Assembly: GCA_963666485.2 (NCBI GenBank) | Contig: CAXXUO010000009.1 | Span: 192,001 to 256,000, forward strand | Origin: Syntrophorhabdaceae bacterium | GTDB taxonomy: Bacteria > Desulfobacterota > Syntrophorhabdia > Syntrophorhabdales > Syntrophorhabdaceae | DNA length: 64,000 nucleotides | Direction: 5' to 3' | In this document: positions 38,423 through 54,354 of the stretch, in pieces | How the letters are laid out: each line of letters starts with the position of its first letter | Position numbering within the stretch: position 1 is the stretch's first letter | Notes under the pieces: generated by a model | The model's database searches: none | What the model saw: only the letters and a program-made list of their open reading frames with translations | Told to the model about the DNA's origin: nothing | Program-made: the position numbers and the translations under genes

Positions 38423-39169
38423 TCACTCCGGCGTGCTTTTCGTCGGCACCGGCTGGGGGGCTGCCGGCTGGCCGGTTCTTGGCCTTGAGGCTCCCCCGGC
38501 GGGCACGGGGGCGGGTGACGGGGTATTCGGCCCGACTGCCGGCTTCGGCGGCGTTTGCGGCAACTGGGGGGAACGCGCCGGGACGCCCGGCTTTGGTGCC
38601 GGGGCCTGGGGTGGCGGGGCCTGGGGCTCCGCGGGCTGGGCGGTATCCCCTCCCCTGCGTTTTGGCTCGGAGAGCATAACTGTGATGCGGTCATCTCCCC
38701 GTGCCAAGGTTATCCTGTCGCTCATGATGTCGGTCACGGTGTACCCGCTGACAACTTCACCCTTCTTTACGACCCTCTGGCGCGCTCCCCTGCCCGGGGT
38801 CGTAACAGGGTTCCTTCTGTCTTCGATGAACGCGAGACGGTCGGTATCCACCAATGTCCCGTAGAGGACTATTTCCGGTCTCGGGACCTCGGCCTTCTTT
38901 TCGACCGGTATCGTCCTGTCCGGATGAAAGAGGTTCGCCTCCCCTATAAGCGCATAATCGGAGGGCATCTTCGGGGAAGATTCGGCCGGCTGGGCGGCGG
39001 CCGCGGCGGCGCCTTTTGTCTTGACCTTCGGAACAGCGTAGTAATGCCTCATGCGGAATGCCGACACCGCTATGCTGGCAGCGAACGCGAGAATTATGAG
39101 TGTAAGCAGCACATTGAGGACATTCGCGCTCTCTATGATATCCCGGAGCCATCTCATTCTATTTTCCAC
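38423..39169 (-). CDS. T2SS GspC-like protein (TM, HR-like domain, Pro-rich tail, no PDZ)
   Basis: Last gene of the gsp operon; NLFHPDR, VLYGTLV...AFIED, KKGEVVSGYTVTDI. Confidence 0.65.
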   Translation of the reverse strand: MENRMRWLRDIIESANVLNVLLTLIILAFAASIAVSAFRMRHYYAVPKVKTKGAAAAAAQPAESSPKMPSDYALIGEANLFHPDRTIPVEKKAEVPRPEIVLYGTLVDTDRLAFIEDRRNPVTTPGRGARQRVVKKGEVVSGYTVTDIMSDRITLARGDDRITVMLSEPKRRGGDTAQPAEPQAPPPQAPAPKPGVPARSPQLPQTPPKPAVGPNTPSPAPVPAGGASRPRTGQPAAPQPVPTKSTPE

Positions 39170-39713
39170 CTGTCAGTGCAGAAATGCGCAGCTTGACCAT
39201 CAATTCCCGGGGGTCCCTGAAGTTTCGCACCCTGGAATCGACCTCCTTTATCACGAGATACGGCGTATGCGTCTCCAGCGTGAACAGGACGTCGCTCAAG
39301 GCGCGCGTATCGGGCACAACGGCGTCCACGCTTACGTTTATAACCTTCAATTTGCCGAGGTCGTCCGCTTTCTCCACGCGCTCGCTCGCTATCGACCCGC
39401 CCCGTGCGGTTATCGAGGTCTTCACGATATTCTGGAGGGCCGCCGCCGCAATGTTGAGGGTCGGGGCGTCGATTATCTTGGCCATCTCCGACGTCCTGCC
39501 TTCCTTCAATATTTCCAGCCTTTTCTCGATCGCAGGCCGCTCCGCAATGAGATTTACATACCGCTCGAGCGTTCCTAAGCGGACAGACTCCTGGTCCCTG
39601 ATCGCGGTCAATTCCGCCTTCACCGCGATATACCCGTACTGGTAGGCAACGATAACAGCGAGGATGACGATGACCGGAAGAGCGACGTGAAAGAGGCGGC
39701 TATTTCTTTTCAT
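39159..39713 (-). CDS. gspM: T2SS GspM-like protein
   Basis: N-terminal TM, coiled coil, AAAALQ...LETHTPYL ferredoxin-like domain; follows gspL. Confidence 0.75.
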   Translation of the reverse strand: MKRNSRLFHVALPVIVILAVIVAYQYGYIAVKAELTAIRDQESVRLGTLERYVNLIAERPAIEKRLEILKEGRTSEMAKIIDAPTLNIAAAALQNIVKTSITARGGSIASERVEKADDLGKLKVINVSVDAVVPDTRALSDVLFTLETHTPYLVIKEVDSRVRNFRDPRELMVKLRISALTGGK

Positions 39714-41232
39714 TTTTTGCACCCGGCGCGGGTTTCTTTTCAAACCCCTCGATCTCCATCTTGATCACAAAGCGGTCGGCGTTCAGACGTGTGTCACGTA
39801 TCGTCGGAGAAGAAAATTCCACCTTTTTGAAAAGCGGCGATTGTTCGAGGCGCGGCAGCACTTCGGTCGCAGACGCGGCATAACCCTCGATCTCGACCGT
39901 CTCACCGGTGATCCTCAGGCGCGTCAGCCATACAGTCTTCGGCAGGATGGTGGTCAGTTCTTTCATGATATCGAGCGTCATCGGGGAAGATTCCTTGAAA
40001 CTCCGTATCGCTGACACATCGGCATCTATCGTTGATGCCTCCTGCCGTATCGCCTCTATCGCTCGTACCTCGCTCCTTCGCGACGCTATCTCCTGTCCTA
40101 TTCTGCCAAGCCGCGCCTTTTCCATGTAAAGCGGAACAATCAGGTTCAGGGCCATGGCAACGACTACAATGCCGAGGAGAATGAATGTTACGCCCCCTAC
40201 CGGGCTTTTTTTCGACTTCTCGCTTCGGCTGCCCGCAAGGTTGAGGCCCTTCTCGCCCGGCCATATCTCTTCGACAAGCCCGCCGAGCGGCCCCGTAAGG
40301 CTACCGCTTACCCCGATGCCGAATGTTTGCCGTAAATCATCGTCGGTCACCGGGCGGGCGGGCAGGCCAATGTCATCCGCGATCTTCGTGTACCCTGCGT
40401 CCGTCTTTATAAGGACAACAGGAGGGGCCTCTTCGTTCTCGAACCCCGGAAGCATTGGGGCGATCCCTTCTTTTATCAGCCGGACATTGTCCTCCTCGTT
40501 ACCCGTCAGCCCTTCAGACACCACTGCATGAAGGACCCCGTCGCGTATCGCACAGCCGTCATATGCCCCGGGGCGGACATCGAGACATATCGTCGCCTTT
40601 GACCCATTCCCGAGCACCCGGCAAACAGTGCCAAGGCCGGTGATGCCGGTGGTCACCCTGCGCGGATGAAGATCGTTCACGTCGAGGGCCTCGATATAAG
40701 GGCGCAGCGTCCGGGCCCTCATGGCGACAACAAGCAGTTTGAGCCTGGAATCCTCTTCGGAAATGATCGAGAAATCATACATGGCCTCGGCCGGGCCAAG
40801 CGGGGTCAGCCGGTCGATCTCGTACCCGATCACCGACGCGAGGTTTTCCCTGACAACGGCAGGAAGTTCCGCCGTCCGGACTATGAGCCACGAGCGGGGC
40901 ATGGAAAGGACGATCGACGCCCCCCGGGCGCCAAAGCTCCCGAGCACCTCCTTCACAGCGAGGACCGTTTCATCGGGGGTGGGATAGCGGCCCCCGGTAT
41001 AACTGAATCGCCTGAACCCCTTTACCTCCGGCTTCATGAATACCCTCGATCCGTACGCTATCGAGACCGCGCCTTCTTCGATAGCGGCGCATAGGCATTT
41101 CTTCGGTATGATCATCCCTTCGAGAATGTTGAACGTCAGGATATTTTCAAATCTCGAGATGCCGAAGAGGACGCGTTCCCGGGCCTTGCCGGTATATTCT
41201 TCCAGTTTGCCTGACAGTTGGTCAAGATTCAT
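39700..41232 (-). CDS. gspL: T2SS GspL / PilN-domain protein
   Basis: Actin-like cytoplasmic part, single TM, ELTTILPKTVWL..L.I.G..VEIEGYA, LEQSPLF. Confidence 0.8.
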   Translation of the reverse strand: MNLDQLSGKLEEYTGKARERVLFGISRFENILTFNILEGMIIPKKCLCAAIEEGAVSIAYGSRVFMKPEVKGFRRFSYTGGRYPTPDETVLAVKEVLGSFGARGASIVLSMPRSWLIVRTAELPAVVRENLASVIGYEIDRLTPLGPAEAMYDFSIISEEDSRLKLLVVAMRARTLRPYIEALDVNDLHPRRVTTGITGLGTVCRVLGNGSKATICLDVRPGAYDGCAIRDGVLHAVVSEGLTGNEEDNVRLIKEGIAPMLPGFENEEAPPVVLIKTDAGYTKIADDIGLPARPVTDDDLRQTFGIGVSGSLTGPLGGLVEEIWPGEKGLNLAGSRSEKSKKSPVGGVTFILLGIVVVAMALNLIVPLYMEKARLGRIGQEIASRRSEVRAIEAIRQEASTIDADVSAIRSFKESSPMTLDIMKELTTILPKTVWLTRLRITGETVEIEGYAASATEVLPRLEQSPLFKKVEFSSPTIRDTRLNADRFVIKMEIEGFEKKPAPGAKNEKK

Positions 41233-42185
41233 CGCTGCGTTTCCGAGGGCGTTTTGTAATAGAAAAAACGCGGTATTGTCGTCTCGGCCGAGACGACGGC
41301 CCTGATGCCGTATCCCTGCTTTTGCCCGCCGAGAAAGCCGGTCGATTCGATCGAATAGACATTCGTTTCCGCCATGTCGATATACTGGCCAAAGGTAGAT
41401 AGATTGAGGCCGGATACTGCCTGAATATCCTGAACAGATTTGAATTCCACCCTTTCCCTCTGGTCGATCATCCTCTGGACGGCCTCGGGGGTGATCCCGG
41501 GAAGCGCCGCGAGCACCTCCCGCGGAGCCGCGTTTATATTGATCTTCGAGGACGTCCCGTATATCGTGAGATAGTATATGATCCCTTTTTGCTCACTGTT
41601 CCCGAAGAGGATGGCGGGGGTTACACCCTTTACGAGAAGGAGCTCCTCGAGGGTGTCGAGCGGGGCGTTCCTGGCCCTGTACGGGACCGGCAGAGAGAGG
41701 TAGTATTCATCCTCAGCCCCGTTCAAACGGCGCAGGTTGTCCGTGTCGATCCAATCCAGGATGGAGTCGACGATTATGTCCGCCGTCTCCTGGGGCACCT
41801 TGAAATTGAGCAGCAGGTTCTTGAGGACCATACCGGTGAGATCGGTCATCTTGTTGACATCGATCTTTCCCGATTCGGACAAGAGCCTGAAGGTGTAGGT
41901 CCCCGGCCCCAGGCTGCCGGTATAGGGCCGGCCATCGATGCGCACCACTTCATTGCCCTCCAGCGTTACCGTCTGCTCGCGATATGTCTGTCGATGGTAT
42001 ATCTCCAGGATGGCCCGTTCGAGCCCTCCTTCCGCGATGAGTTTCTTCTGGATCCCCTCTTTGAAGAATATCGTCGAATAGGCATCCGTGCGTATCAGGA
42101 ACGAGAACGAGATGACAAGCGTGACCAGTATCGTGATGACCCACAACACCATTATGATCGCAATACCTTTTTCCGACCGCATCAT
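41229..42185 (-). CDS. gspK: T2SS minor pseudopilin GspK
   Basis: KGIAIIMVLW, ESGKIDVN, ILDWID.D, EELLLVKG, ININAAP. Confidence 0.92.
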   Translation of the reverse strand: MMRSEKGIAIIMVLWVITILVTLVISFSFLIRTDAYSTIFFKEGIQKKLIAEGGLERAILEIYHRQTYREQTVTLEGNEVVRIDGRPYTGSLGPGTYTFRLLSESGKIDVNKMTDLTGMVLKNLLLNFKVPQETADIIVDSILDWIDTDNLRRLNGAEDEYYLSLPVPYRARNAPLDTLEELLLVKGVTPAILFGNSEQKGIIYYLTIYGTSSKININAAPREVLAALPGITPEAVQRMIDQRERVEFKSVQDIQAVSGLNLSTFGQYIDMAETNVYSIESTGFLGGQKQGYGIRAVVSAETTIPRFFYYKTPSETQR

Positions 42186-42781
42186 GTTTTCACCTTGCCG
42201 GACCGGACGGGGACGGTAAAGGCTATTTTCCGGTCCGGGAAGGTCAGGGTGACCCGTATCTTCCGGGGGAAGAGCAGGTCATCCGTCCAGGTCGCGACCC
42301 ACTCCCCCGCCGTGCCTTCGAATTCATTTTCTTTGCGGAAATACTCGAAACGTACGGCGCTCAAGCCCTCGAGGAGCCGGACCTGCCTCTGGTTGTCGAC
42401 GCCCACCGTGTTCTCTTCAATATCGAATGCGGTCGTGCCGTTGTCGGCGGGCCTCGCGGCGTATGTCACGATGACGTACCCGTTCTTTCCCCCGATCAGC
42501 GAGTAATTCGACGCGAACCTGACCCGGTCTGCGGACCCTTCGAAGAAAAGGCGCCCCTGTTCATCATCCTGCCGCGTGAGAGGTATCGCCGACTGAATCT
42601 GCTCATCTACCAGGGAAAAGGCCGCCCTCAATCGCTCGAGGTAGGTCATCTTCGCTTCTCCCTTGTTAACGGAACTGTACGAGAGGCGCATCGCCCCGGC
42701 CATTATGACCAGGATAAGGCTGAGAAGGGCAATGGATATCATGACCTCGAGCAGGGTGAACCCTGCCGTCCGTTTCTTCAT
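42182..42781 (-). CDS. gspJ: T2SS minor pseudopilin GspJ
   Basis: Prepilin site AG/FTLLEVM; W...W....FPRKI; position in the operon. Confidence 0.8.
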   Translation of the reverse strand: MKKRTAGFTLLEVMISIALLSLILVIMAGAMRLSYSSVNKGEAKMTYLERLRAAFSLVDEQIQSAIPLTRQDDEQGRLFFEGSADRVRFASNYSLIGGKNGYVIVTYAARPADNGTTAFDIEENTVGVDNQRQVRLLEGLSAVRFEYFRKENEFEGTAGEWVATWTDDLLFPRKIRVTLTFPDRKIAFTVPVRSGKVKT

Positions 42782-43203
42782 ATCCGGCCCGCCTGTTCCT
42801 TTTTCACCATCTTCATGGTCCTCAATGTCGTCGACCTCTGGGTCATGCCGCCCTGCCATGTGAGCTTCACGGTTATTTCGAGCAGATCGAGCGGCAGTTC
42901 GCGTGTCCTTTTCTCAAGTGCGCGGGTTATGACAGTCTCGACAACGAACCCTCCGGGGTCCGTTTCTATTCGTGTACCCTCCTTAAGGTCATCGCGGTCA
43001 AGGACCTCTCTCGTGACCGCCAGTGCCCGCGCGCTCATCCACACGTGGTCTTCCGACCGGGCGACAAGGCTGAGATCGGACGAGAACAGCTGGAAGATGA
43101 CCGTGACCGTCGATGCGAGAAGAACAAATGCTATGAGCACCTCGAGTAGCGTAAAACCTTCGTTCCTTTTCAGCGTCGTCCGTACCGGGCGTATCCTGTT
43201 CAT
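42778..43203 (-). CDS. gspI: T2SS minor pseudopilin GspI
   Basis: Prepilin site EG/FTLLEVLIAF; size and position. Confidence 0.8.
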   Translation of the reverse strand: MNRIRPVRTTLKRNEGFTLLEVLIAFVLLASTVTVIFQLFSSDLSLVARSEDHVWMSARALAVTREVLDRDDLKEGTRIETDPGGFVVETVITRALEKRTRELPLDLLEITVKLTWQGGMTQRSTTLRTMKMVKKEQAGRI

Positions 43204-43219
43204 TTCCCGTACCGCCTCA

Positions 43220-43678
43220 TCATTTTGCAACGGCCGCTCCCAGGACCGGGTCGATGTCTATCCGTATCGCTTTTCGGCCCCCCGTGAGCGTGATCCTGCC
43301 CCAGTTCGACCCGCCCGACCCGTTGAAAACAACGGTATATTCACCTCGCATCATGTCCCCTTCCAGCGGGTCCGTTATCCTGACAGCCACATCACCGGGT
43401 ATCCTGCGCGTCTGAACCCCGGGGATGCCGTATCGCCCGGTGTCGAGGTTGATAAAGACCGACCGCGGTTCTCCGCTGTTCCTCGCGAGCAGACGCGCGA
43501 ACCGCAGCATTGCCGACATCTCGCGCCCTGTCGCCGTCAAGTTCTCGGACGGCAACCGGTTTGCGAAAAAGACCGTCGAAACCCCCAGGATGATAACGAT
43601 AAGCACCATGACCATCATTATTTCGATGAGGGTGAAACCCGCGCTTCCCCGATGTTTTCTAAAAGAACGTGTGTGCAT
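43220..43678 (-). CDS. gspH: T2SS minor pseudopilin GspH
   Basis: Prepilin site AG/FTLIEIM; ARLLA, FNGSGGS..G.I.L. Confidence 0.8.
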   Translation of the reverse strand: MHTRSFRKHRGSAGFTLIEIMMVMVLIVIILGVSTVFFANRLPSENLTATGREMSAMLRFARLLARNSGEPRSVFINLDTGRYGIPGVQTRRIPGDVAVRITDPLEGDMMRGEYTVVFNGSGGSNWGRITLTGGRKAIRIDIDPVLGAAVAK

Positions 43679-43687
43679 AGTACCCTC

Positions 43688-44881
43688 TCAGAACGGAAGC
43701 TCCAGGATGCTGAAGACCGCCATCAGCATCGATACAACGATAAATGCGATGATAATGCCCATTGCCAGGATGATGGCCGGTTCAAGGAGGCTCATAAATC
43801 TTTTGACAGCGTCCCTGAGCCCTTTTTCGTATGCGGCCGCGACCTTGAGGAGCATGACATCGAGCTGCCCCGTCTCCTCCCCCACCTTGATCATGGAAAG
43901 GGCAAGCCGGGGAAAGATGCCTGCATCCATGAGGGGCGCCGCGATGCCCTTGCCTTCCCGGACGTTCCTGACTATGGCGTCGATCGAGCCGGCGACGATC
44001 CTGTTCCCTATCACGTCCTTGGAATTGTTGAGCGCCTGCAGGAAAGGCACCCCGCTCTTGAGAAGGGTCCCTAAGGTCCTGCAAAAACGGGCTGTCTCCA
44101 GTTTCATCACGACGTCGCGAAAAAGTTTGAGCTTCATCTCGTCCCATTTGTAGGCGCCGCGTTCGGTCCTTGAATAGAACCGGGCAAGGAGGAGCACCCC
44201 GGCAATGACCGGGAAGATTATCCACCAGTAGGAACGGAGCAGCGTGCTGACACCGAGGATAAAACGCGTCGACAGGGGAAGTGTGCCGCCTATCTCGCTG
44301 AATATCGCGGAAAACCGGGGGAGAACAAAGGTAAGGAGGATGATTATGGAAATGCCGCCGGTCACGGTGAGGATAAGCGGGTAGACCATTGCGGACACGA
44401 CATTGTCCTTAAGTTCCTTCGCTGTTTCCAGGAATTCGTTGAGCTTGTCGAGAACGATGTCGAGGACCCCTCCCGTTTCCCCGGCGCGCACCATGCTCAC
44501 GTAGAGCTTCGGGAAAATATCGGGATATTTCTTCAGGGCGTCCGAGAAGGAATTTCCCTCCCTGATCCCGGTAAGCACCGAATTTATGACCTCCTTCATC
44601 CGCGCTCCCTCCGATATGTCGGAAAGGATATTGAGGCTGCGGTCGATCGGAAGGCCCGCCCCGAGAAGGGCCGACAGTTCGGTTGTGAAGGTGAGCAGGT
44701 CTCCCCGCGACGACCGCAGGGAAAGCCGCCGTCCCGCAACGGCTTCGGGCACGGATATCCGGATGGGTATGATGCCCGTGTTCCGTATCTTCTCGGCCGC
44801 GGACTGTTCATTGGGCGCATCGACAACCCCTTCGATAATATTTCCCTCGAACGTTGTGGCAGTATAGGAATACATTGCCAC
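43688..44881 (-). CDS. gspF: T2SS inner membrane platform protein GspF
   Basis: FTTELSALLGAGLP, SMVRAGETGG, VGEETGQL, LLEPAII. Confidence 0.93.
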   Translation of the reverse strand: MAMYSYTATTFEGNIIEGVVDAPNEQSAAEKIRNTGIIPIRISVPEAVAGRRLSLRSSRGDLLTFTTELSALLGAGLPIDRSLNILSDISEGARMKEVINSVLTGIREGNSFSDALKKYPDIFPKLYVSMVRAGETGGVLDIVLDKLNEFLETAKELKDNVVSAMVYPLILTVTGGISIIILLTFVLPRFSAIFSEIGGTLPLSTRFILGVSTLLRSYWWIIFPVIAGVLLLARFYSRTERGAYKWDEMKLKLFRDVVMKLETARFCRTLGTLLKSGVPFLQALNNSKDVIGNRIVAGSIDAIVRNVREGKGIAAPLMDAGIFPRLALSMIKVGEETGQLDVMLLKVAAAYEKGLRDAVKRFMSLLEPAIILAMGIIIAFIVVSMLMAVFSILELPF

Positions 44882-46423
44882 TTAATCCTCCCGTGTGACC
44901 CTGAACACCTCTCTCAAGGTTGTCGATCCTGCTTCAATCTTTGCAATGCCGTCCTCGAGCAGTGTTCTCATGCCTTCCTTGCGCGCAGCCTCGCGGATCT
45001 GCCCTTCGTCCGCGTTCTTCAAGATCAGCCTGCGTATGGCGTCGTCGACGATAAGGAATTCGAAAAGGCCCATGCGCCCCCGGAAACCTGTATAGGAACA
45101 GGCCTCGCACCCCTTCCCGCGGAAGACGGGGGCGTCTTCGGCGAAACCGAGCGCGATGAGCTCCTGCAATTGCTGTGATGATGTGTCTTCAGTCCTGCAT
45201 TCTGCGCAGATGACCCGGACCAGCCTCTGGGCCAGGATGCCGCGTATCGTCGAGGACAGCAGGAATGCCTCGACCCCCATGTCAAGGAGTCGTGTAATGG
45301 CGCTCGGTGCATCGTTCGTGTGCAGGGTAGAAAAGACAAGATGCCCCGTAAGGGCGGCTTGAATGGCGATTTCGGCGGTTTCGAGGTCCCTGATCTCCCC
45401 GATCATGATCACATCGGGGTCCTGGCGGACGATATGCCGCAGCGTGCTCGCGAAACTCAAGCCTATGTTCGGGCGCACCTGTATCTGGTTTACCCCTTTA
45501 AGCTGATATTCGATCGGGTCTTCGACGGTGATGATCTTTTTATCCGGTGAATTTATCTTGTCGAGGGCCCCGTACAGTGTCGTTGTCTTCCCGCTTCCCG
45601 TCGGCCCCGTGACGAGTATGATGCCGTTCGGCCTCTGGATGAGCTGGTCGAAATCCTTCAGCATGCCCGGCATGAACCCGAGGACGTCAAGATCGATGAC
45701 GATGCTTTCCTTGTCGAGGATCCTCATGACGATGCTTTCCCCGTGCAGGATGGGTATGGTTGAAACGCGGAGGTCGATCTCCCTGTCGCCGACGAGGAGC
45801 CGTATGCGGCCATCCTGCGGCAGCCTGCGTTCCGCTATGTTCAGCTTCGCCATGATCTTGATCCGGGAGACGATGGCGGCCTGCAGCCTTTTCGGCGCGG
45901 ACTCGACATCGCTGAGAACGCCGTCGATCCGATAGCGCACCTTGACCTCGTCTGCGAAGGGCTCGATATGGATATCGCTCGCCCTGCTCTCGACCGCCCG
46001 CGTTATCAGGAGATTGACAAGCTTTATGATCGGCGCTTCCGAGGCGAGGTCCTTGAGATGGCCTATGTCCTCCTCGTCGATCCCGTTCGCGAGGCCCTGC
46101 CCCTCCTCGTCGATGCCTTCTATGATCCGGTTGATGTTCTGATCTTCCTGGCTGTAGAACTTCGACAGGAGTTCGTCGATCGTTTCCCTATCGCCTGTGT
46201 ACACTTCTACATCCCCTGCCGTCGCCACGCGAAGCGCGTCTATGAGGTCACGGTCCGCGGGATCGGCCATGATGACCTTGAGAACTTCATTTTTCAGTTC
46301 AAAAGGTATCACCCTGTTCTCCCGGATAAAGCGGGTCGATATGCCCTCGATGACGAGCGGGACCTTCGGAAACTCTTCAGGGCTCAAAAAGGTTACCTTC
46401 TTCTCTGCCATGGCAGTTGTCAT
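44882..46423 (-). CDS. gspE: T2SS ATPase GspE
   Basis: RASDIHIEP, AERRLPQDGR, GPTGSGKTTT, RQDPDVIMIGEIRD, TGHLVFSTLH, CxxC...CxxC. Confidence 0.95.
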   Translation of the reverse strand: MTTAMAEKKVTFLSPEEFPKVPLVIEGISTRFIRENRVIPFELKNEVLKVIMADPADRDLIDALRVATAGDVEVYTGDRETIDELLSKFYSQEDQNINRIIEGIDEEGQGLANGIDEEDIGHLKDLASEAPIIKLVNLLITRAVESRASDIHIEPFADEVKVRYRIDGVLSDVESAPKRLQAAIVSRIKIMAKLNIAERRLPQDGRIRLLVGDREIDLRVSTIPILHGESIVMRILDKESIVIDLDVLGFMPGMLKDFDQLIQRPNGIILVTGPTGSGKTTTLYGALDKINSPDKKIITVEDPIEYQLKGVNQIQVRPNIGLSFASTLRHIVRQDPDVIMIGEIRDLETAEIAIQAALTGHLVFSTLHTNDAPSAITRLLDMGVEAFLLSSTIRGILAQRLVRVICAECRTEDTSSQQLQELIALGFAEDAPVFRGKGCEACSYTGFRGRMGLFEFLIVDDAIRRLILKNADEGQIREAARKEGMRTLLEDGIAKIEAGSTTLREVFRVTRED

Positions 46424-48777
46424 TCGATACCGGGCGGTACGGGGCCTGGCGCAGCGGGGCCGGGCGGTTTGTTTGCGGGTGCCGGGGTTGCCGGGGAGGG
46501 TTTGGAAGGCACCCCGCTGCCCGTACCCGGCGCGGCCTGGGGTATCGGCTGGTTGAGAAGCTCCTGCCTCTTGATATCGGTCTCGCTCTTCGGGATGCCG
46601 CCTTTGTCGCTCATGGGCGCGGGCGGGATCGTCACCGGCTTCTGTTTTATCAGGTCTTCCCTCTTGATCTTGCCTTTTCCCGTTTTTGTCACGCTGTCGA
46701 CATAATCAGACGTGACGTTGGCAGCGTCGATATGATTCCGTATTACCCGCGGAGTGAGCAGGATGATGAGCTCGGTGCGCTCGGTATTGTCGTCGGTGGT
46801 CCCGAAGAGCCATCCCAGGATCGGTATCTTGCTGAGGAAAGGTATCCCTGAACGCGACCGCGATATATCGTCGCGGATCAGCCCGCCGATGATTATCGTA
46901 TTGCCGTCCTGGCAGACGAGGCTGGTCGTTGTTTCCGTCTTGTTAAGCACAATGTAGTCTTCGTTGTCGAAAAGCTTGATGGTGGTATAGTTCGAGACCT
47001 CCTGCGCAAGGTCGAGCGTAACGAGGCCCCCCTCGTTGATGCGCGGTTTCACCTTGAGGATGATGCCGATGTCCTTGTACTGGACGGTACGCTGGGGGGC
47101 GATCGTCCCCGAGCCAAAGGTTTCCGATGAGACGACCGGTACCTGCTGGCCGACCTGGATCCGCGCCTCCTTGTTGTCCGACACAAGGATATGCGGCACC
47201 GCGAGCAGCTTCGCCCGGTTGTCGATGGCGAGCATGTCGATAACTGTCTTGAAATCTCCTCCGACGTTCCCCGCGAACGTGAACGTGCCCAGGCCCGTTG
47301 CGGCATTGGGGGTCGAACCGGGGACATTGAAACCGACCACGCCCTCGACCGCGCCCAGGACACCGTTCATCCCATCCTTATTGATCTGAAGGGCCCACGA
47401 GATGCCGAGCTTCAGTTCGTCCTTCAGTGTGACCTGCGCCACCACTCCCTCGAGGAGGACCTGTCGGGGTATAACGTCAATGCGCGCAACCGCGGTCTTA
47501 ATGAATTCGTAATCTTCCGGCGTAGACAAGATAATGAGGGCATTCAGGTTTTCGTCCGCGATGATCTTCGTGATGGGGGACACGAGAAGTTCACCGGTTG
47601 GCTGGCCGCCTGTCGATTGCATGGACGGCCTTGGCGGCTGCTGGGCAGCAGCCGGTTGCGCTGCAGGTCCCCCCGGGGTCGCCGGTCCGGCGGATGTTGT
47701 CACAGGCTGTGCGGGCGGCCTCTGGGAAAGAAGTACCTGCTGCAGAATAGCGGCGACGTCCTTCGCCTTGCCGTTTTGAACGTTATAGACCGACACCTGC
47801 GGTTTCTTGAGCTTGGTCTGCTCGCCGTCAAAGAAATTGATAAGGGTCAACAGCCTTTTGACGTTGGAATCGGTATCGACGATCATAATGTGGTTGATAT
47901 TGGGCAGTTCGATAACGACAGCCGTCTGCGTGAGAAAAGGCGTTATCAGCTTGACCGTCTCCGAGGAATGGACGTGCACGAGAGGCACGACCTGTATTAT
48001 CGATTTACCCTGGACAGGGATGGCTCCCGGGTCCCGGCCGAACTTGATCTGGGCAGGTTCTTTTGCCACCTCGCTGATGGGAACGATCCTGTACAGGCCG
48101 CTCTCTTCGACAACACCTATACCGTTGATCCTGAGGATCGTCTCCATGACAGGAAGGACCTGGTCGAGCGACACGGGCGCCACTGACCGGAACGTCACGC
48201 GCCCCTTGACCCGTTGATCGACAATGTAATTTACCTTGAGGATCTCCCCGAATATTGTCTGTATAACGGAATAGACATCGGCATCGTCGAAATTCAGGCT
48301 GATGCGGCCCGCACCCGGCCGCGCAGGGCTCACGGGCCTCGGGGGTTGGCCGGGCTGAACAGAGGGTGATAACGGCTGCCTGCGCAAGGCGGCCGGATGA
48401 GTTTCTCCCGGCGTGCCAAACTGTGCAGGCGGAGATTTAGATGCCTCAGGCCCCGCTGGTGGAGGCGGAACCTGAGGCTGCGGAGACTGCGATATCCCCG
48501 GCGTCGAGGTGGGTTGTGCCGGAGATTCGCCAGGAGGCAAGATGGACTTACCGGGGGGCTCTGCCTCACGCTGCGGGGCGCCAACGGGCACAGCCTGTGC
48601 GATGCCGGGTTGTGCCGGTGTGCTCCGGGTGATGCCCTCCTTCACCTGGCTGGCCTTTCCGAGGATGGTCATGGAAGACTCGGCCCCCGCGAAAACAGGC
48701 AGACAGGTGAAAAGAATGCCGATTATGCCCTTCCCGATAAAGTGTATAAAAAAAGACCGGAGTGTCATATTATGCAT
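46420..48777 (-). CDS. gspD: T2SS secretin GspD with Pro-rich N- and C-terminal extensions
   Basis: ISLNFDDAD N0 domain, QVLLEGVVAQV, IIIGGLI, GIPFLSKIPILGWLF, ELIILLTPRVI. Confidence 0.93.
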   Translation of the reverse strand: MHNMTLRSFFIHFIGKGIIGILFTCLPVFAGAESSMTILGKASQVKEGITRSTPAQPGIAQAVPVGAPQREAEPPGKSILPPGESPAQPTSTPGISQSPQPQVPPPPAGPEASKSPPAQFGTPGETHPAALRRQPLSPSVQPGQPPRPVSPARPGAGRISLNFDDADVYSVIQTIFGEILKVNYIVDQRVKGRVTFRSVAPVSLDQVLPVMETILRINGIGVVEESGLYRIVPISEVAKEPAQIKFGRDPGAIPVQGKSIIQVVPLVHVHSSETVKLITPFLTQTAVVIELPNINHIMIVDTDSNVKRLLTLINFFDGEQTKLKKPQVSVYNVQNGKAKDVAAILQQVLLSQRPPAQPVTTSAGPATPGGPAAQPAAAQQPPRPSMQSTGGQPTGELLVSPITKIIADENLNALIILSTPEDYEFIKTAVARIDVIPRQVLLEGVVAQVTLKDELKLGISWALQINKDGMNGVLGAVEGVVGFNVPGSTPNAATGLGTFTFAGNVGGDFKTVIDMLAIDNRAKLLAVPHILVSDNKEARIQVGQQVPVVSSETFGSGTIAPQRTVQYKDIGIILKVKPRINEGGLVTLDLAQEVSNYTTIKLFDNEDYIVLNKTETTTSLVCQDGNTIIIGGLIRDDISRSRSGIPFLSKIPILGWLFGTTDDNTERTELIILLTPRVIRNHIDAANVTSDYVDSVTKTGKGKIKREDLIKQKPVTIPPAPMSDKGGIPKSETDIKRQELLNQPIPQAAPGTGSGVPSKPSPATPAPANKPPGPAAPGPVPPGIE

Positions 48778-48780
48778 GAT

Positions 48781-49206
48781 CTATTGCCAGCTCATTATAT
48801 CGGCGTCTTCTCCCTCGCCGCCGGGCGAGCCGTCCCTCCCGAGTGAATAGAGGTCATATTCGCCGTGGCTTCCCGGGCACTGGTACACGTACGACCTTCC
48901 CCAGGGATCGTTTGGCAGCGCCTTCTTGAGGTACGGGCCCTCCCAGTTGGGAACGCCGGGATTTGTGACCAGCGCACTCAAGCCTTCCTGGGTCGCAGGG
49001 TACCGTCCCACATCGAGCCTGAATTGATCGAGCGCCTGGCCTAAGAGTTCTATCTGGGCCTTTGCCGCGGCCTGCTTTCCCTTGCCCAGCTTCGGAAAAA
49101 GCTTGGGTGCGACCAGGGCCGCCAAGAGCCCTACGATGACCATGACGACGAGCAGTTCTATAAGTGTGAAACCCTTATTATCCCGCCTGATAAAGATCTT
49201 TTTCAT
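48781..49206 (-). CDS. gspG: T2SS major pseudopilin GspG
   Basis: KG/FTLIELLVV, ALDQFRLDVGRYP...GL, GPYL...DPWG, SLGRDG..GGEGEDADI. Confidence 0.96.
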   Translation of the reverse strand: MKKIFIRRDNKGFTLIELLVVMVIVGLLAALVAPKLFPKLGKGKQAAAKAQIELLGQALDQFRLDVGRYPATQEGLSALVTNPGVPNWEGPYLKKALPNDPWGRSYVYQCPGSHGEYDLYSLGRDGSPGGEGEDADIMSWQ

Positions 49207-49413: not shown

Positions 49414-50787
49414 TCAGGCTGATTCGCGTTTCTTGAAATCGTCCGGGCTCAGTTTGTGTTTCTTGAGAAGGTCATACAGGTCTGCACGGTATTTCCCGGC
49501 ATACCTGGCAACCTCGGAAATGTTGCCCCTGCACGTCTCGAGGAGGTAGATGAGATAACTTTTTTCGAACGCATCCTTTGCCTGTTTCAGGGGGCGGACC
49601 GGGTCCTGGGACACAACGCCTTTTGTCTGGAGGACCAGGTCGTCCGTTATATACTCCCTGTCGGTCATTGCAGCCGCGTACTCTATGACATTTTCAAGTT
49701 CCCGGATATTCCCCGGCCAGTCATAGAGCATGAGCTTTTGCATTGCCTGCGGCGTCACGCCTTTGATATTTTTTTTCATGAGCGATGCCGCTTTCTCCAC
49801 GAAGAAATCGACGAGCGGAGGAACGTCCTCCTTGCGCTCCCGCAGGGCCGGCAGGTATATAGGGATAACATGGATCCTGTAGTAGAGGTCCTCGCGGAAA
49901 AGCTCCAGCCGGACAAGTTCCTCGAGGTTCTTGTTCGTCGCCGTGATTATCCTGACATCCACGTCAATGATCTTTTCGCTGCCCACGGGACGGACCTGCT
50001 TTTCCTGGATGACCCTGAGCATTTTCGCCTGGATGGAGAGCGGCATATCCGCTATCTCATCGAGGAATATCGTTCCTCCATGGGCCTGGAGGAACAGGCC
50101 CCTTGCCTCCTTGATCGCCCCGCTGAAGGCCCCTTTCTCATGCCCGAAAAGATTGCTTTCAAGCAGGGGTTCGGGCAGGGCGGCGCAGTTGATGGCAACG
50201 AACGCCCGGTCCTTCCGGTTGCTGGCCACGTGAATTGCCTTTGCGATGAGGTCCTTGCCGGTACCGCTCTCCCCGAGAAGGACAATCGTGGAATCCGTCT
50301 TTGCGATCCTCGAAATGGTCTCGAGGACCTCCTGCATTTTCTTGCTCTTCGCTATGATGTTGGCAAAGCTGTACCGTGATTCGAGAAGTTCCTTCAGCCT
50401 TTCGATCTCTGTGGACATGCGCCTGTTATCCATTATTTTTCGTATCTCGAACAGAAGGACCTCGGAATCGAAGGGTTTAGTGAGGTAGCTATACGCCCCG
50501 CGCTTCATGGCATCGACGGCATTGGCTATGCTGCCGTACCCGGTCAGGATGATGACAGGGATCTGCGGGTTGACTGCATGGATCCTTTCCATGAGGGTTA
50601 TACCGTCTATCCCGACAAGCTGAAGATCAAGCAGGGCGAGGTCAATGGCTTCTTCTCTTACGTATATCATGGCCTCTGATGCGTTGGTTGCTGCCGCCAC
50701 ATCGTACCCGGCCGCCTCGAGGCCGAGCGCGATCAATTCGAGGAGATTTCTTTCATCATCAACAACAAGGATCTTTCCCAGCGGCAT
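49414..50787 (-). CDS. Sigma54-dependent response regulator (NtrC family, GlrR-like)
   Basis: Receiver domain, GESGTGKD, GAFSGA, FLDEIADM, WPGNIRELEN, C-terminal HTH. Confidence 0.94.
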   Translation of the reverse strand: MPLGKILVVDDERNLLELIALGLEAAGYDVAAATNASEAMIYVREEAIDLALLDLQLVGIDGITLMERIHAVNPQIPVIILTGYGSIANAVDAMKRGAYSYLTKPFDSEVLLFEIRKIMDNRRMSTEIERLKELLESRYSFANIIAKSKKMQEVLETISRIAKTDSTIVLLGESGTGKDLIAKAIHVASNRKDRAFVAINCAALPEPLLESNLFGHEKGAFSGAIKEARGLFLQAHGGTIFLDEIADMPLSIQAKMLRVIQEKQVRPVGSEKIIDVDVRIITATNKNLEELVRLELFREDLYYRIHVIPIYLPALRERKEDVPPLVDFFVEKAASLMKKNIKGVTPQAMQKLMLYDWPGNIRELENVIEYAAAMTDREYITDDLVLQTKGVVSQDPVRPLKQAKDAFEKSYLIYLLETCRGNISEVARYAGKYRADLYDLLKKHKLSPDDFKKRESA

Positions 50788-50806
50788 AGCGACCCCCTTC
50801 ACCAGA

Positions 50807-52252
50807 TCATATCGGCAGAGTGAAAATAAACGTGGCGCCTTTTCCCGGCTCGCTCTTGGCCCACACGGAACCCCCGTGTGCCGTAATGATATGCTTGACA
50901 AAAGCGAGACCAAGCCCGGTTCCCTTTATCGGGCCGGAAGACCTTACAGGCGATTGGTGGAATTTCTCGAAGATCGTTTCGAGGCTTTCCTCGGGAATAC
51001 CCGGGCCGGTATCGTGTATCGAAAATTCCAGGCTGCCGTTATGCCGGTACACGTCTATGGATATCAGGCCATTCTCCGGGGCAAACTTGACCGCATTCCC
51101 GACCAGGTTGCGGATCGCCTGGAGGATCCTCTCCCTGTCGAGCCGTACGGGGGGCAGCGTATCTTCCTGCCCGCCGAACTGCATGGTGACCCGGACCTTC
51201 TTCGCCTCGATGAGGGGCGTCATCTCGTCGACGACCCTGCGTACAAGCGCGGGAAGATCGTCATAGCGCAAAGCGAAGGGCATCATTCCCGCCTCCATTT
51301 TGGAGAGCTCAAGTATGGTATTGACGATCTCGATGAGCCTGTTCGTTTCTTCGGACAATATGGTAAAGATCCTCTTCTGCTTGTCCGGCATCGGACCCGC
51401 AATACGGTCGCGCAAGAGGCTTATGCCCTGTTTTATCGAAGCGAGCGGGGTCCGCAACTCATGCGACATCGCTGCGATAAAGCCCGATTTCATCGAATCG
51501 ACCTCTTTGAGCTTCTCGCACATCCTGTTCAGCTCTCCGGCAAGTTCCGACACCTCACGGGGTGATGCAATGGAGAGGTCTCCCTCGAAGACCCCCCGTG
51601 ATATCTCCCGCGTCTTTTCCCTGAGAAGATGAAGCGGTTTCGTGATGCCGCGGGCATTGAGGAACAGGCCGATCGCCATGAAGGCCGCGGCTGTCGCGAA
51701 CAGGATAATGGATATCTTCTGGGACCTTGCGGCGGTCTGCTGAAGCATCGCCATCCTCAAACCGGTATCCCTTTCGTACATGCCCTTAAGGGCCTTCAGG
51801 TCATCTGAAATATCCCCGGCAATCCTGTCCGGCTTTTTGAGGTCGCCCGGACCGCTGTCGGTCCTTATTCCCTCTATCTGCGTATTGATGAGGGTCCGGT
51901 AATTGTCATAGCCCGATATTATCCGGGCAAGGGCATCTTTCTTCTCCGGTGTATCGACGGAGGACGACATCCTGGCGAGATATGCTTCAAATTCCTTCTG
52001 CCCGTCGATGATCGGGCGAAGGAATGCCACATCGCGGGCAACAATGAACCTGCGCATGGATAATCTCTGGGACTCGAGCGAATGCGCCAATCGCTCGTTG
52101 AGATCGAGACCGTTCCGGTCCTGTTGAAAGATCACATTCACCTCGACGTTCAGGCGATGTAGCGCCCACACCGAGTATGCATTGATCATCCCAAGAAAAA
52201 TGATCACAGCAAAATAACTGAAAAGAAGGCGTGAAAAAATATTCAAACGCAT
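50807..52252 (-). CDS. Membrane sensor histidine kinase with HAMP domain (GlrK-like)
   Basis: Two TMs, SHELRTPL, NAVKF, DTGPGI, GTGLGL. Confidence 0.94.
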   Translation of the reverse strand: MRLNIFSRLLFSYFAVIIFLGMINAYSVWALHRLNVEVNVIFQQDRNGLDLNERLAHSLESQRLSMRRFIVARDVAFLRPIIDGQKEFEAYLARMSSSVDTPEKKDALARIISGYDNYRTLINTQIEGIRTDSGPGDLKKPDRIAGDISDDLKALKGMYERDTGLRMAMLQQTAARSQKISIILFATAAAFMAIGLFLNARGITKPLHLLREKTREISRGVFEGDLSIASPREVSELAGELNRMCEKLKEVDSMKSGFIAAMSHELRTPLASIKQGISLLRDRIAGPMPDKQKRIFTILSEETNRLIEIVNTILELSKMEAGMMPFALRYDDLPALVRRVVDEMTPLIEAKKVRVTMQFGGQEDTLPPVRLDRERILQAIRNLVGNAVKFAPENGLISIDVYRHNGSLEFSIHDTGPGIPEESLETIFEKFHQSPVRSSGPIKGTGLGLAFVKHIITAHGGSVWAKSEPGKGATFIFTLPI

Positions 52253-52477
52253 CGAGCACCTAATATCGAATCGTTTCGCCGGCTTTGTTCTGAAACGGGG
52301 GACGGGTTACATCATACTTGTTTTCTTTTGCATTCCGGTTAACATGGATGTGCAGGAAAAACCCTGCGCTGTATGAAATGACCTGGGGGAAAAACCCTTC
52401 ATTTGAAACCGTACAGATAAATTGCCCGAAACTCATAAATCGTTTAACTCCGGTAGTATAGCACAATTTTTTCTCCG

Positions 52478-52493
52478 AGGCACGTCATTTGCT
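52478..52493 (+). promoter_or_regulatory. Sigma54 -24/-12 promoter AGGCACGTCATTTGCT
   Basis: GGCACG-N4-TTGCT with exact GG-N10-GC spacing, 70 nt upstream of ATG 52563; divergent from a sigma54 activator operon. Confidence 0.8.
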
Positions 52494-52562: not shown

Positions 52563-53390
52563 ATGAATCACAGGGCAAACGTAAGTTCCGGAGTGTCGAT
52601 CTTTGCGATATGGCTTATCGCCGGCGCACTTCTTCTGGGACTTTTCGCGGGAAGCGCATCGGCAGCAAGCGTCGCGCTCGCCTGGAACGCAGCGGCAGGC
52701 GTGTCCGGGTACAAGATCTATTATGGAACGGCAAGCGGCACCTACACGGCCAGCGTCAAGGCGGGGAACGTGACGGCCTATACCGTTGCAAATCTTGCCG
52801 ACGCCACGAAGTATTATTTCACCGTCACCGCCTATGATTCATCAGGCATTGAAAGCGACCATTCAAACGAGGTAACTGCGGGCGGCGGCACCTCGTGCAC
52901 GTACGCTATCTCCCCGTCGAGCGCTTCTTTCACGTCAAGCGGCGGCACCGGAAGCATATCCGTTACAGCCGGCAGCGGCTGTTCGTGGAGCACGTCGACC
53001 GGCGTCTCCTGGATAACGATCTCATCCGGGTCAACAGGCACCGGGAGCGGCACGATATCATACAAGGTAGCCGCCAACACCGGCTCCGCGCGCACAGCAT
53101 CGTTCACCGTGGCCGGAAAGACCTTCACGGTGTCCCAGTCGGCGGCGTCATCGGGCACAACGACGAAATATACCATAACGATCAGATATGCCGGGACCGG
53201 CTCCGGTACGGTCACTGCAAGTCCCGCGGGCCCGTATGCATACGGCACATACGTCAAGCTCACCGCCGTACCGAACACCGGTTCGGTCTTCGCCGGCTGG
53301 TCAGGATTATGCTCCGGCAGCACAAATACGACATGTTCGGGATATGTGTACAACAACTATACCGCCACGGCCACTTTCAACAGGAAGTAA
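52563..53390 (+). CDS. Secreted Ser/Thr/Gly-rich protein: FN3-like + BACON-like + InlB B-repeat-like domains
   Basis: GGAGG RBS; signal peptide ASA/A; LAW...GYKIYYG...YYFTVTAYD..G.ES..SNEV; CSWS....SWITI..G..G.GSGTI.Y.VAAN...RT; V.LTA.P..GS.FAGWSG.C. Confidence 0.85.
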   Translation: MNHRANVSSGVSIFAIWLIAGALLLGLFAGSASAASVALAWNAAAGVSGYKIYYGTASGTYTASVKAGNVTAYTVANLADATKYYFTVTAYDSSGIESDHSNEVTAGGGTSCTYAISPSSASFTSSGGTGSISVTAGSGCSWSTSTGVSWITISSGSTGTGSGTISYKVAANTGSARTASFTVAGKTFTVSQSAASSGTTTKYTITIRYAGTGSGTVTASPAGPYAYGTYVKLTAVPNTGSVFAGWSGLCSGSTNTTCSGYVYNNYTATATFNRK

Positions 53391-53457
53391 CCGGAAGGGG
53401 CGAGGCACTGCACGTGAACATGACATGTGTTAAAGTAGTACATAAAGGAGGCGTTTC

Positions 53458-54294
53458 GTGAAAAAGATATTATCGGCGATGGCGGTTTTAGCACTGCTTA
53501 TCGTATGTCAAACAGGTCATTCAACGGTCATCTGGCAGGAAAATTTCGACGGGTTTACGCGCGACTACAGTTGCTCTCTTGCGGACTGTTCGCTCAATCC
53601 CGGTCTCCCGGCGGGATACGTCGGCTTCGGTTCGAACACCCTTTGCAAGAACTACGGCCAGCCCAACGCCCAGATCGTGGCCGCCGCCGAGCGGTCGAAC
53701 CCGGGCCAGACGAACAAGCGCGGTTTTCGCATAAACCTGGAGGAACAATGCTGGCCCACCGGGGAGAACATACTGAAAAAAGACCTGGGCAAGAATTATA
53801 CCCTTCTCTACCTTCGCTGGTACCAGAGGGACTCCGCAAAGTCTTTCTCCAATTTTCAGAAGCTCTTCCGCCTGAAACAGTCGAACGGCCAGATCATCAT
53901 CCCTGAGTTTCAGGTCAACGGCAGCAACGTCCAGATGAATCTCTGGGACGCACAGACCAACAGCAACCACTTTTTCACGGGATACAGCCTCAACACCCAG
54001 TACACCGTCAATACATGGGTCTGCTACGAGATCAAGATCGACCTCGTCAACAAACAGGCGGAGTTCTGGGTCAACGGTGTTTCGAAGGGAACACTGAACG
54101 CCACCTGGTGGCCGTCGGGATGGTACGTACGGTATATCGAGATCGGCGGCAACCAGTACGGACAATCGTGGGTATACCCGGTGGAGCAGACGCGCGACTA
54201 TGATGACATCGTCGTCGCCGACTCATATGTCGGGCCCATGGGCCCTCCTGCTTCAGCAGTTCCGGTACCGCAGAACCTCAGGGTCGTGCCTTAA
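53458..54294 (+). CDS. Secreted beta-jelly-roll (LamG/ConA or polysaccharide-lyase-like) protein with C-terminal PVPQNLRVVP tail
   Basis: AGGAGG RBS; signal peptide; WQENFD, LYLRWY, KLFR, WVCYEI, EFWVNG, YDDIVVA..YVGP. Confidence 0.7.
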   Translation: MKKILSAMAVLALLIVCQTGHSTVIWQENFDGFTRDYSCSLADCSLNPGLPAGYVGFGSNTLCKNYGQPNAQIVAAAERSNPGQTNKRGFRINLEEQCWPTGENILKKDLGKNYTLLYLRWYQRDSAKSFSNFQKLFRLKQSNGQIIIPEFQVNGSNVQMNLWDAQTNSNHFFTGYSLNTQYTVNTWVCYEIKIDLVNKQAEFWVNGVSKGTLNATWWPSGWYVRYIEIGGNQYGQSWVYPVEQTRDYDDIVVADSYVGPMGPPASAVPVPQNLRVVP

Positions 54295-54313: not shown

Positions 54314-54354
54314 GGCCGGGACCGCGGGCGATGCCGCTGTCCCGGTCTTTTTTT
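54314..54354 (+). terminator. Intrinsic terminator
   Basis: GGCCGGGACCGCGG...CCGCTGTCCCGGTC followed by T7. Confidence 0.75.

Follow-up and report, generated by a model that had tools for sequence, protein, structure and literature searches.

Here we describe two adjacent genes, A and B, in a 64,000-nucleotide stretch of DNA from a Syntrophorhabdaceae bacterium (assembly GCA_963666485.2, contig CAXXUO010000009.1, positions 192,001 to 256,000; the whole stretch is referred to below as the window), which may encode the two parts of a single split domain. Gene A specifies a putatively exported protein whose fibronectin type III (FN3) domain lacks its first strand, strand A, and gene B a putatively exported jelly roll of the polysaccharide-lyase-like kind, whose last ten residues form a tail resembling this strand. 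The best-supported reading, to which we give about an even chance, is that the tail of B completes the FN3 domain of A in trans. Both open reading frames (ORFs) lie where the original prediction, made from the sequence without database searches, had placed them, and its description of the two genes was borne out. The pair comprises the following features.

52563-53390, + strand: gene A, ORF of 275 amino acids (aa)
52563-52664, + strand: residues 1-34 of A, signal-peptide-like leader ending in ..GSASA, read from the sequence (predicted local confidence, pLDDT, <50 at residues 1-33)
52665-52883, + strand: residues 35-107 of A, FN3 domain without strand A, with strands B, C, C', E, F and G (Pfam fn3, AlphaFold2 (AF2) model)
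52983-53138, + strand: residues 141-192 of A, BACON domain (Pfam PF13004, E 2.9e-8)
53178-53384, + strand: residues 206-274 of A, divergent InlB B-repeat, Flg_new_2 (Pfam PF18998, E 1.1e-10)
53458-54294, + strand: gene B, ORF of 278 aa with a GTG start
53458-53523, + strand: residues 1-22 of B, signal-peptide-like leader (..CQTGHS), from the sequence and a model in which residues 2-17 are helical and the first strand starts at 24
53524-54231, + strand: residues 23-258 of B, concanavalin A (ConA)-like, polysaccharide-lyase-like jelly roll (AF2, Foldseek)
54232-54261, + strand: residues 259-268 of B, proline-rich linker that varies among homologues (pLDDT ~50)
54262-54294, + strand: residues 269-278 of B, PVPQNLRVVP, and the stop codon; candidate orphan FN3 strand A (motif conservation, FN3 alignment, complex model)

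The Pfam fn3 profile (PF00041) matches residues 33-105 of A from profile position 12 to 82 of 84, with 33.7 bits at a cut-off of 25. About 11 strand-A positions of the profile have no counterpart, and strand B directly follows the hydrophobic signal sequence; read by eye, the leader has a basic n-region, then a hydrophobic stretch, and closes with ..GSASA before ASVALAW, and its end contains neither a cysteine nor a lipobox. The fn3 matches of A homologues likewise begin at profile positions 10-14. Modelled alone by AF2 with 12 aligned sequences, A forms FN3 strands at residues 35-40, 49-55, 63-68, 72-78, 84-91 and 104-107 with a pLDDT of ~85-93, that is, six strands instead of the seven, strand A included, of the FN3 sandwich. 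The profile positions together with the six-strand model uphold the claim that the FN3 of the first protein is devoid of strand A. Completion of the domain by A's own sequence was not seen: in the AF2 model the strand-A slot is empty and the N-terminus disordered; the protein ends in the last Flg_new_2 strand, without a tail. Among solved structures, a profile of A homologues matched generic FN3 domains only and no member of this subclass.

The B protein ends in ..SYVGPMGPPASAVPVPQNLRVVP, followed by the stop codon. With 35 aligned sequences AF2 modelled it as a jelly roll (mean pLDDT 88), for which Foldseek retrieved TtX122 of Teredinibacter (8q28/8q29/8q2a), calreticulin lectin domains, the polysaccharide lyase (PL) family 20 glucuronan lyase (2zzj), the PL36 alginate lyase (6kzk) and Cip1 (3zyp), with E-values of 5e-9 to 1e-7, TM-scores of 0.53-0.65 (normalised to target length) and 8-17% identity to the solved structures. 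The closest language-model clusters of the ESM atlas carry PL14, heparin-lyase-I-like and Cip1-like families, which we treat as leads only. No curated family in Pfam or NCBIfam and no dockerin matched B, nor did these two databases hold a family name for the role of A as a partner. Judging from the models, B is probably a secreted ConA-like, polysaccharide-lyase-like module with a free tail, its activity being putative; it is unlikely to be a lipoprotein because the cysteine of its leader is not kept in homologues. Packing of the tail in cis on the jelly roll was rejected, as residues 261-278 make no contacts in the AF2 model and have a pLDDT of 47-50. The second gene had been said to end in a short linker and PVPQNLRVVP with no domain thereafter, and this stands: a terminator-like hairpin and a convergent methyltransferase gene occupy the DNA after the stop and therefore leave no room for a downstream FN3 remnant, and we discarded a decayed FN3 3' of B as an explanation of the tail.

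Conservation of the tail and its modelled docking

Among B homologues down to ~40% identity the tail has the conserved core P-x-[NG]-L-R-[VI] and the linker that precedes it is variable. The pattern P-x-[NGQ]-[LV]-[RT]-[VIL]-x(1-4)-stop ends 13 of 13 close homologues and nine distant ones (39-59% identity) among 34 that were aligned. A profile search with B through 1.84 billion cluster representatives gave 498 matches, and the best 150 of these together with the 34 homologues make up 178 distinct proteins that were examined. In 66 of the 178 the jelly-roll domain ends no more than 60 residues from the C-terminus; these short-tailed members carry a loose strand-A pattern in 36 of 66 cases (18 of 45 when short-tailed representatives of 50%-identity clusters are counted), as compared to 51 of 5540 ORFs of at least 150 aa in the source genome. 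The tail consensus of the wider family is P-[PS]-[AP]-P-T-[NG]-L-R-[VI]-x(1-3)-stop. The strict tail pattern occurs in six ORFs of at least 60 aa in the 3.77 Mb source genome, and B is the sole one among them with a proline-rich linker and a signal peptide; the other five resemble spurious frames or an unrelated HlyD-like end.

Three relatives of B (P0067, P0089 and P0103) run on at the position of the tail into a full FN3 domain. In P0089 the Pfam fn3 match starts from profile position 2, and BLASTP pairs ..VPQNL of B with ..TPINL of P0089. These alignments support positional homology of the tail with strand A of the FN3 in the fused relatives, and the FN3 of A and the tail of B span complementary parts of one FN3 profile. 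Hence, with the tail conserved and aligned to the FN3 start of fused relatives, the proposal that the second protein carries an orphan strand A held. As far as can be judged from sequence comparison, the tail is selected and not a relic.

Other members of the B family carry, at the same C-terminal position, MYXO-CTERM-like ends, a dockerin, cysteine-rich modules, repeats or other short tails, a variety that fits a role of this position in targeting or anchoring. Several homologues (P0018, P0019, P0024; P0029-P0032; L025, L028) have an acidic proline-rich linker with a GCGC motif, or two or three PVNE[ST]WY..WCDANGW repeats; the GCGC ends are those that we take to be MYXO-CTERM-like. Two further short tails recur in the superfamily, G-x-[ST]-I-x-G-G-x-x-[QR]-stop and Q-I-[IM]-L-x-x-P-S-F-stop, as found in P0028, P0143, P0152 and P0167 (also P0074, P0117 and P0170) and in L098 and L099.

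Complex prediction, which had been proposed for the FN3 domain and the tail, placed the tail in the strand-A slot. Residues 35-112 of A and 23-278 of B were modelled together, each with a separate alignment, in three runs and with three controls. The interface score ipSAE was 0.73, 0.70 and 0.70 for the three runs and 0.00 for the best control; solved complexes came up to that mark in 116 of 157 cases, mismatched pairs in 2 of 215. The runs have at least 73% of contacts in common, with a partner pLDDT of at least 83. The modelled interface involves residues 267-278 of B only, which lie against residues 37-42 (strand B), 86-92 and 96-106 of A, and the residue pairs 41:274, 39:276 and 42:272 (A:B) outline an antiparallel ladder of strands A and B that places Leu274 inside the core. 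The model supports binding of the two proteins and does not show it.

Distribution of the pair and alternative explanations

In the 19 other genomes of the genus that were searched, the 12 with B are the same 12 that have an orthologue of A (E <1e-30), and in the seven genomes without B the search with A gave weak matches to the BACON region or none. This distribution shows a cassette that would have been gained and lost as a unit within the genus. Upstream DNA is available for 22 tail-bearing B homologues, and in 19 of them the gene immediately before B is A-like, namely at all ten such genome loci (one of them fragmented), at seven metagenome loci, and at L026 and L027, two divergent B paralogues with 47% and 42% identity. 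In a genus genome of 78% completeness (G420 C20 628989-630744; L046, L048, L077) the orthologues of A and B are broken by stops or frame changes, and L010 is likewise affected; the broken copies in both may be errors of long-read assembly rather than pseudogenes.

A more distant sample covered 401 genomes of another class of the phylum. In G160 and G595, which belong to one family, and in G793 from another, a gene for a leader followed by a strand-less FN3 lies upstream of a lyase-like gene on the same strand, the latter ending in ..SAPQDFDLQ, ..SSPDGFQFD or ..APGNLRVSGTN. Where a B-like gene is present, 12 of 20 genomes also have this FN3 class, as do 69 of the 381 genomes that lack one (Fisher p = 7e-5, with related genomes not being independent). 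The class was likewise present in 8 of 8 genomes whose B-like gene has a strand-A-like tail, where the tails were judged by eye after the fact. Co-occurrence of the two signatures was thus found in part: presence is shared within the genus and the pair recurs in no fewer than three other lineages, but many genomes with strand-less FN3 domains have no B.

Within the source genome the Pfam fn3 profile has one match, gene A. Since plug and socket, the tail and the strand-less FN3, each occur once there and side by side, a general plug-and-socket system for attachment is ruled out in this genome. The profile of A found a second FN3-bearing protein in this genome (G000 C1, L088 724-1743 (+)), a lipoprotein whose gene is flanked by an argH-like and a lysA-like gene and whose FN3 copies start with an ordinary strand A (..PPAPPMLVKAVKKGNAIALTW..).

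Several observations weigh against completion in trans, some of which favour an alternative that we consider unlikely, namely that FN3 domains of this subclass (..L-x-W..G-Y-K-I-Y-Y-G-T-x-S-G-x-Y..) are self-sufficient with six strands and are not complemented at all, the tail of B being the short remainder of a C-terminal FN3 since lost, or a stub of linker retained for purposes other than docking, for instance to shield the C-terminus or to aid solubility. The lone FN3 of A is modelled at its high pLDDT without the tail; pLDDT is silent on stability, and the fold is not obviously dependent on the tail according to this model. That the domain might suffice for itself had been named as a possible refutation, and the outcome is divided: A does not complete its own FN3, and the six-strand fold is confidently modelled without the tail. 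A family-wide search of 69 genomes matched A in 38 and B in 14, which speaks against obligate pairing. In three genera of the family (g4, g6 and g9; 21 genomes), up to 13 or more FN3 matches per genome begin at strand B after a leader, and B has a single weak match (E 3e-6, in G441). Seven regions around such strand-less FN3 genes (G447, G152 and G441; ~134 kb), inspected with a narrow pattern or by eye, yielded no tail-bearing neighbour. Database relatives of A's FN3 show the layout of a leader followed by strand B in other architectures too, and internal copies (the triple FN3 of G160; P0046 and P0047) start 4-12 residues after the previous domain, with no room for strand A. Because FN3 domains that begin at strand B are common in genomes without B, the socket, as judged from its distribution, is not dependent on the plug of B; the subclass may tolerate the missing strand, or borrow one from partners that were not found. 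Furthermore, at three tail-bearing loci on short contigs (L020-22) the upstream gene is a methyltransferase gene and not an FN3 gene, the conserved adjacency can be explained by shared function alone, and the complex model may restore an FN3 fold remembered from intact domains. The fused form with a full FN3 would also provide a possible starting point for truncation.

However, a neutral relic would not hold P-x-[NG]-L-R-[VI] and the position of the stop over 40-90% identity while the linker drifts, and motif and stop are also kept in many 50%-identity clusters. The DNA after the stop holds a terminator-like site and not a decayed FN3. Self-sufficient six-strand domains are also difficult to reconcile with four FN3 proteins, encoded elsewhere in the phylum, that lack the N-terminal strand A and carry a strand-A-like C-terminal tail of their own: L142 9770-10129 (-), ending in ..TPAPIIKRIILK, L144 9755-10171 (+), ending in ..ETVPKIIKIQIK, L119 1539-2516 (+) and L091 12384-13334 (-). 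These are hard to explain unless the groove takes a strand in trans, and their architecture suggests as much; they could be strand-shifted subunits that link up in a head-to-tail chain. In the 401-genome sample, open frames with both socket and tail, 120-170 aa in length, are numerous.

A second alternative, which we likewise rate as improbable, is that the tail serves as a C-terminal tag recognised by some other partner or during secretion, sorting or processing, or adds a strand to a different surface, outer-membrane or matrix protein, and that A and B are adjacent merely through action on the same polysaccharide. It would accord with the established or probable sorting or anchoring modules that the B family bears at the same C-terminal position (GCGC, dockerin and cysteine-rich ends and the two other short tails), with the location of B next to a type II secretion system (T2SS) cluster and with the occurrence of strand-less FN3 proteins without B. 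It leaves unexplained why the tail has a sequence like that of FN3 strand A and sits where fused relatives continue into a full FN3, why the complex model, whose controls score 0.00, brings precisely this tail into the strand-A slot, and why tail-bearing genes and genes for strand-less FN3 proteins are adjacent in several lineages. In addition, no sorting system recognising a strand-A-like motif was found in the literature, and we know of none that recognises such a tail motif; both points count against a tag of this kind.

It is hardly credible that the arrangement is an artefact, with a frameshift or premature stop splitting a longer B-FN3 gene or with the true start of A lying upstream and encoding strand A: the frame of A is indeed open upstream to a TTG at 52422 and copies are fragmented in one long-read relative (L010 and G420), but the upstream extension is without a strand-A motif, GGGGAGG precedes the ATG at 52563 and homologues share this start, the stop and tail of B are identical in more than 20 independent assemblies, and B is followed by a terminator-like site and then by a convergent gene.

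Completion of the FN3 of A by the tail of B keeps its place as the best-supported reading. Docking in trans by donor-strand complementation, as originally proposed, draws on the homology and conservation of the tail, the complex model and the recurring pair; the docking itself is modelled only.

Genomic neighbourhood and proposed mechanism

Genes A and B are separated by 67 nt on the same strand, AAGGAGG precedes the GTG of B, and a scan of the + strand between the two genes found no terminator-like site. The surroundings of the pair contain the following features.

52478-52493, + strand: sigma-54-type promoter-like site AGGCACG-N4-TTGCT, 70 nt 5' of the ATG of gene A
54326-54352, + strand: terminator-like hairpin and T-run 3' of gene B (stem 54326-54342)
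49414-52252, - strand: divergent two-component pair, histidine kinase at 50807-52252 and sigma-54 response regulator at 49414-50913 (Pfam)
38423-49206, - strand: type II secretion cluster with GspG, GspD, GspE, GspK, a pseudopilin, PilN/GspL-like and GspM-b (Pfam)

The promoter-like site is the sole match with at most one mismatch to what we take to be the sigma-54 consensus in the 64 kb window, where 0.5 matches per window are expected by chance. The same pair of a kinase and a sigma-54 regulator flanks A-like genes in relatives (L026, L137-L139) and often adjoins the strand-less FN3 genes of g4, g6 and g9. Relatives of the locus are labelled Syntrophorhabdus or Syntrophorhabdaceae. Beyond the terminator-like site and the convergent methyltransferase gene, Pfam assigns the genes downstream of the pair to polysaccharide synthesis, namely glycosyltransferase family 2 (GT2), a fused oxidoreductase/epimerase, GT4, ATP-grasp and PGA_cap, the methyltransferase being counted among them. 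Within the T2SS cluster, an ORF of 419 aa at 42815-44074 (+) on the opposite strand has no Pfam match; it is probably the shadow frame of an uncalled gspF-like gene.

Based on these data we propose that A and B form a two-gene unit, probably transcribed from the sigma-54-type promoter under the control of the adjacent kinase/activator pair, and that both products would be exported by Sec. A would be a scaffold of three beta-sandwich modules, of which the first, the FN3 genetically devoid of strand A, would leave the edge of strand B and part of its core open. B would consist of the jelly roll, a flexible proline-rich linker and the ten-residue tail equivalent to FN3 strand A, which would insert antiparallel to strand B of A's FN3, with Leu274 of B packing on Trp41 and on strands F and G of A. 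The sandwich would thereby be completed and a glycan-active module tied non-covalently to a BACON/immunoglobulin (Ig)-like scaffold. We infer that the two proteins bind each other in vivo, in the periplasm or outside the cell, and the complex may act on the polysaccharide of the adjacent glycosyltransferase cluster; a role of the T2SS for the pair is suggested by adjacency alone.

If the tail completes the FN3 domain, donor-strand complementation would serve to dock an enzyme-like module on a scaffold and not to build a pilus. A conserved unannotated C-terminal motif of many secreted jelly-roll proteins would gain a function, the common architecture of a signal peptide followed by an FN3 that begins at strand B would be explained, and a very small natural split-domain pair would become available for protein engineering. 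A tentative extension, somewhat more likely to be wrong than right, is that orphan strand-A tails and strand-less FN3 domains constitute a widespread tag-and-socket system, in which ten-residue C-terminal tags join the fold of a partner. Lyase-like enzymes would bear such tags, as would small FN3 subunits that combine socket and tag, and bacteria of several lineages would thus build non-covalent extracellular enzyme-scaffold complexes, perhaps also fibres resembling chains of beads, without chaperone, usher or sortase.

Relation to known strand-complementing and docking systems

A full-text literature search, with supplements outside its scope, found no description of an FN3 domain split between strands A and B over two proteins. 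The closest precedents come from pili and from the assembly of carbohydrate-active enzymes. In chaperone-usher pili it is the C-terminal G strand that is missing and an N-terminal extension that supplies it; assembly requires a chaperone in the periplasm as well as an usher in the outer membrane, and yields a polymer. As far as the cited account covers them, these pili (Fim, Pap, Dr) are built from Ig-like sandwiches that are encoded minus one strand and completed from another polypeptide (PMC4789730). The FN3 of A is likewise encoded minus one strand, the candidate donor strand on B is conserved, and its occupancy of the groove is predicted by the complex model (ipSAE 0.70, best control 0.00). 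Unlike in these pili, A misses the N-terminal strand A, the donor of B is C-terminal and the product would be an enzyme-scaffold heterodimer. Among 25 neighbouring ORFs there was no chaperone or usher Pfam family, the remainder of the genome not having been searched for them, and the same scan found no sortase near the pair.

For type V pili of Bacteroidota, gingipains have been shown to remove the N-terminal strands of Mfa4, and donor-strand polymerisation has been proposed (PMC4789730). As in these pili, the groove of A would result from an absent N-terminal strand. In later work on FimA and Mfa1-5 the groove is reportedly filled by the C-terminal strand of the next subunit. However, type V subunits are made as lipoprotein precursors that contain the strand until a protease cuts it off, whereas A never encodes strand A and has no lipobox. 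The fold of the type V subunits is not FN3 and their product is a fibre, and the genome studied here has one plug and one socket. The pair does not have the head-to-tail arrangement of type V subunits, as A is without a tail and B without an FN3; small FN3 proteins that unite both features occur in other genomes. A further parallel is offered by the WxL (Elr) pili of Enterococcus, which, as far as described in the cited preprint, bear modular tip adhesins joined by donor-strand exchange, combine an invariant attachment module with variable payloads through strand complementation and rely on the WxL fold, a membrane chaperone and sortase anchoring, in Bacillota only (bioRxiv 10.64898/2026.10.17.759780). 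On that description, the modular attachment through strand complementation that we propose is similar, with an FN3 in place of the WxL fold.

In its functional logic the pair resembles cohesin and dockerin, in which a short C-terminal module of a secreted carbohydrate-active enzyme docks to a non-catalytic scaffold, and one member of the B family, P0103, does possess a dockerin. A dockerin, however, is a folded calcium-binding domain that attaches to a complete cohesin surface, whereas here a ten-residue peptide would enter the fold of its partner. With TtX122, PL20, PL36, PL14 and Cip1, B shares the ConA jelly-roll fold and language-model features; in contrast to the curated lyases, B lies outside any Pfam or NCBIfam family; it has 8-17% identity to solved structures and may be called lyase-like by its modelled fold only. 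Taken together, the mechanism proposed for A and B would be donor-strand complementation in an altered form, in which the fold is FN3, the N-terminal strand is never encoded, the donor is C-terminal and the product is, according to the model, a heterodimer of an enzyme and a scaffold.

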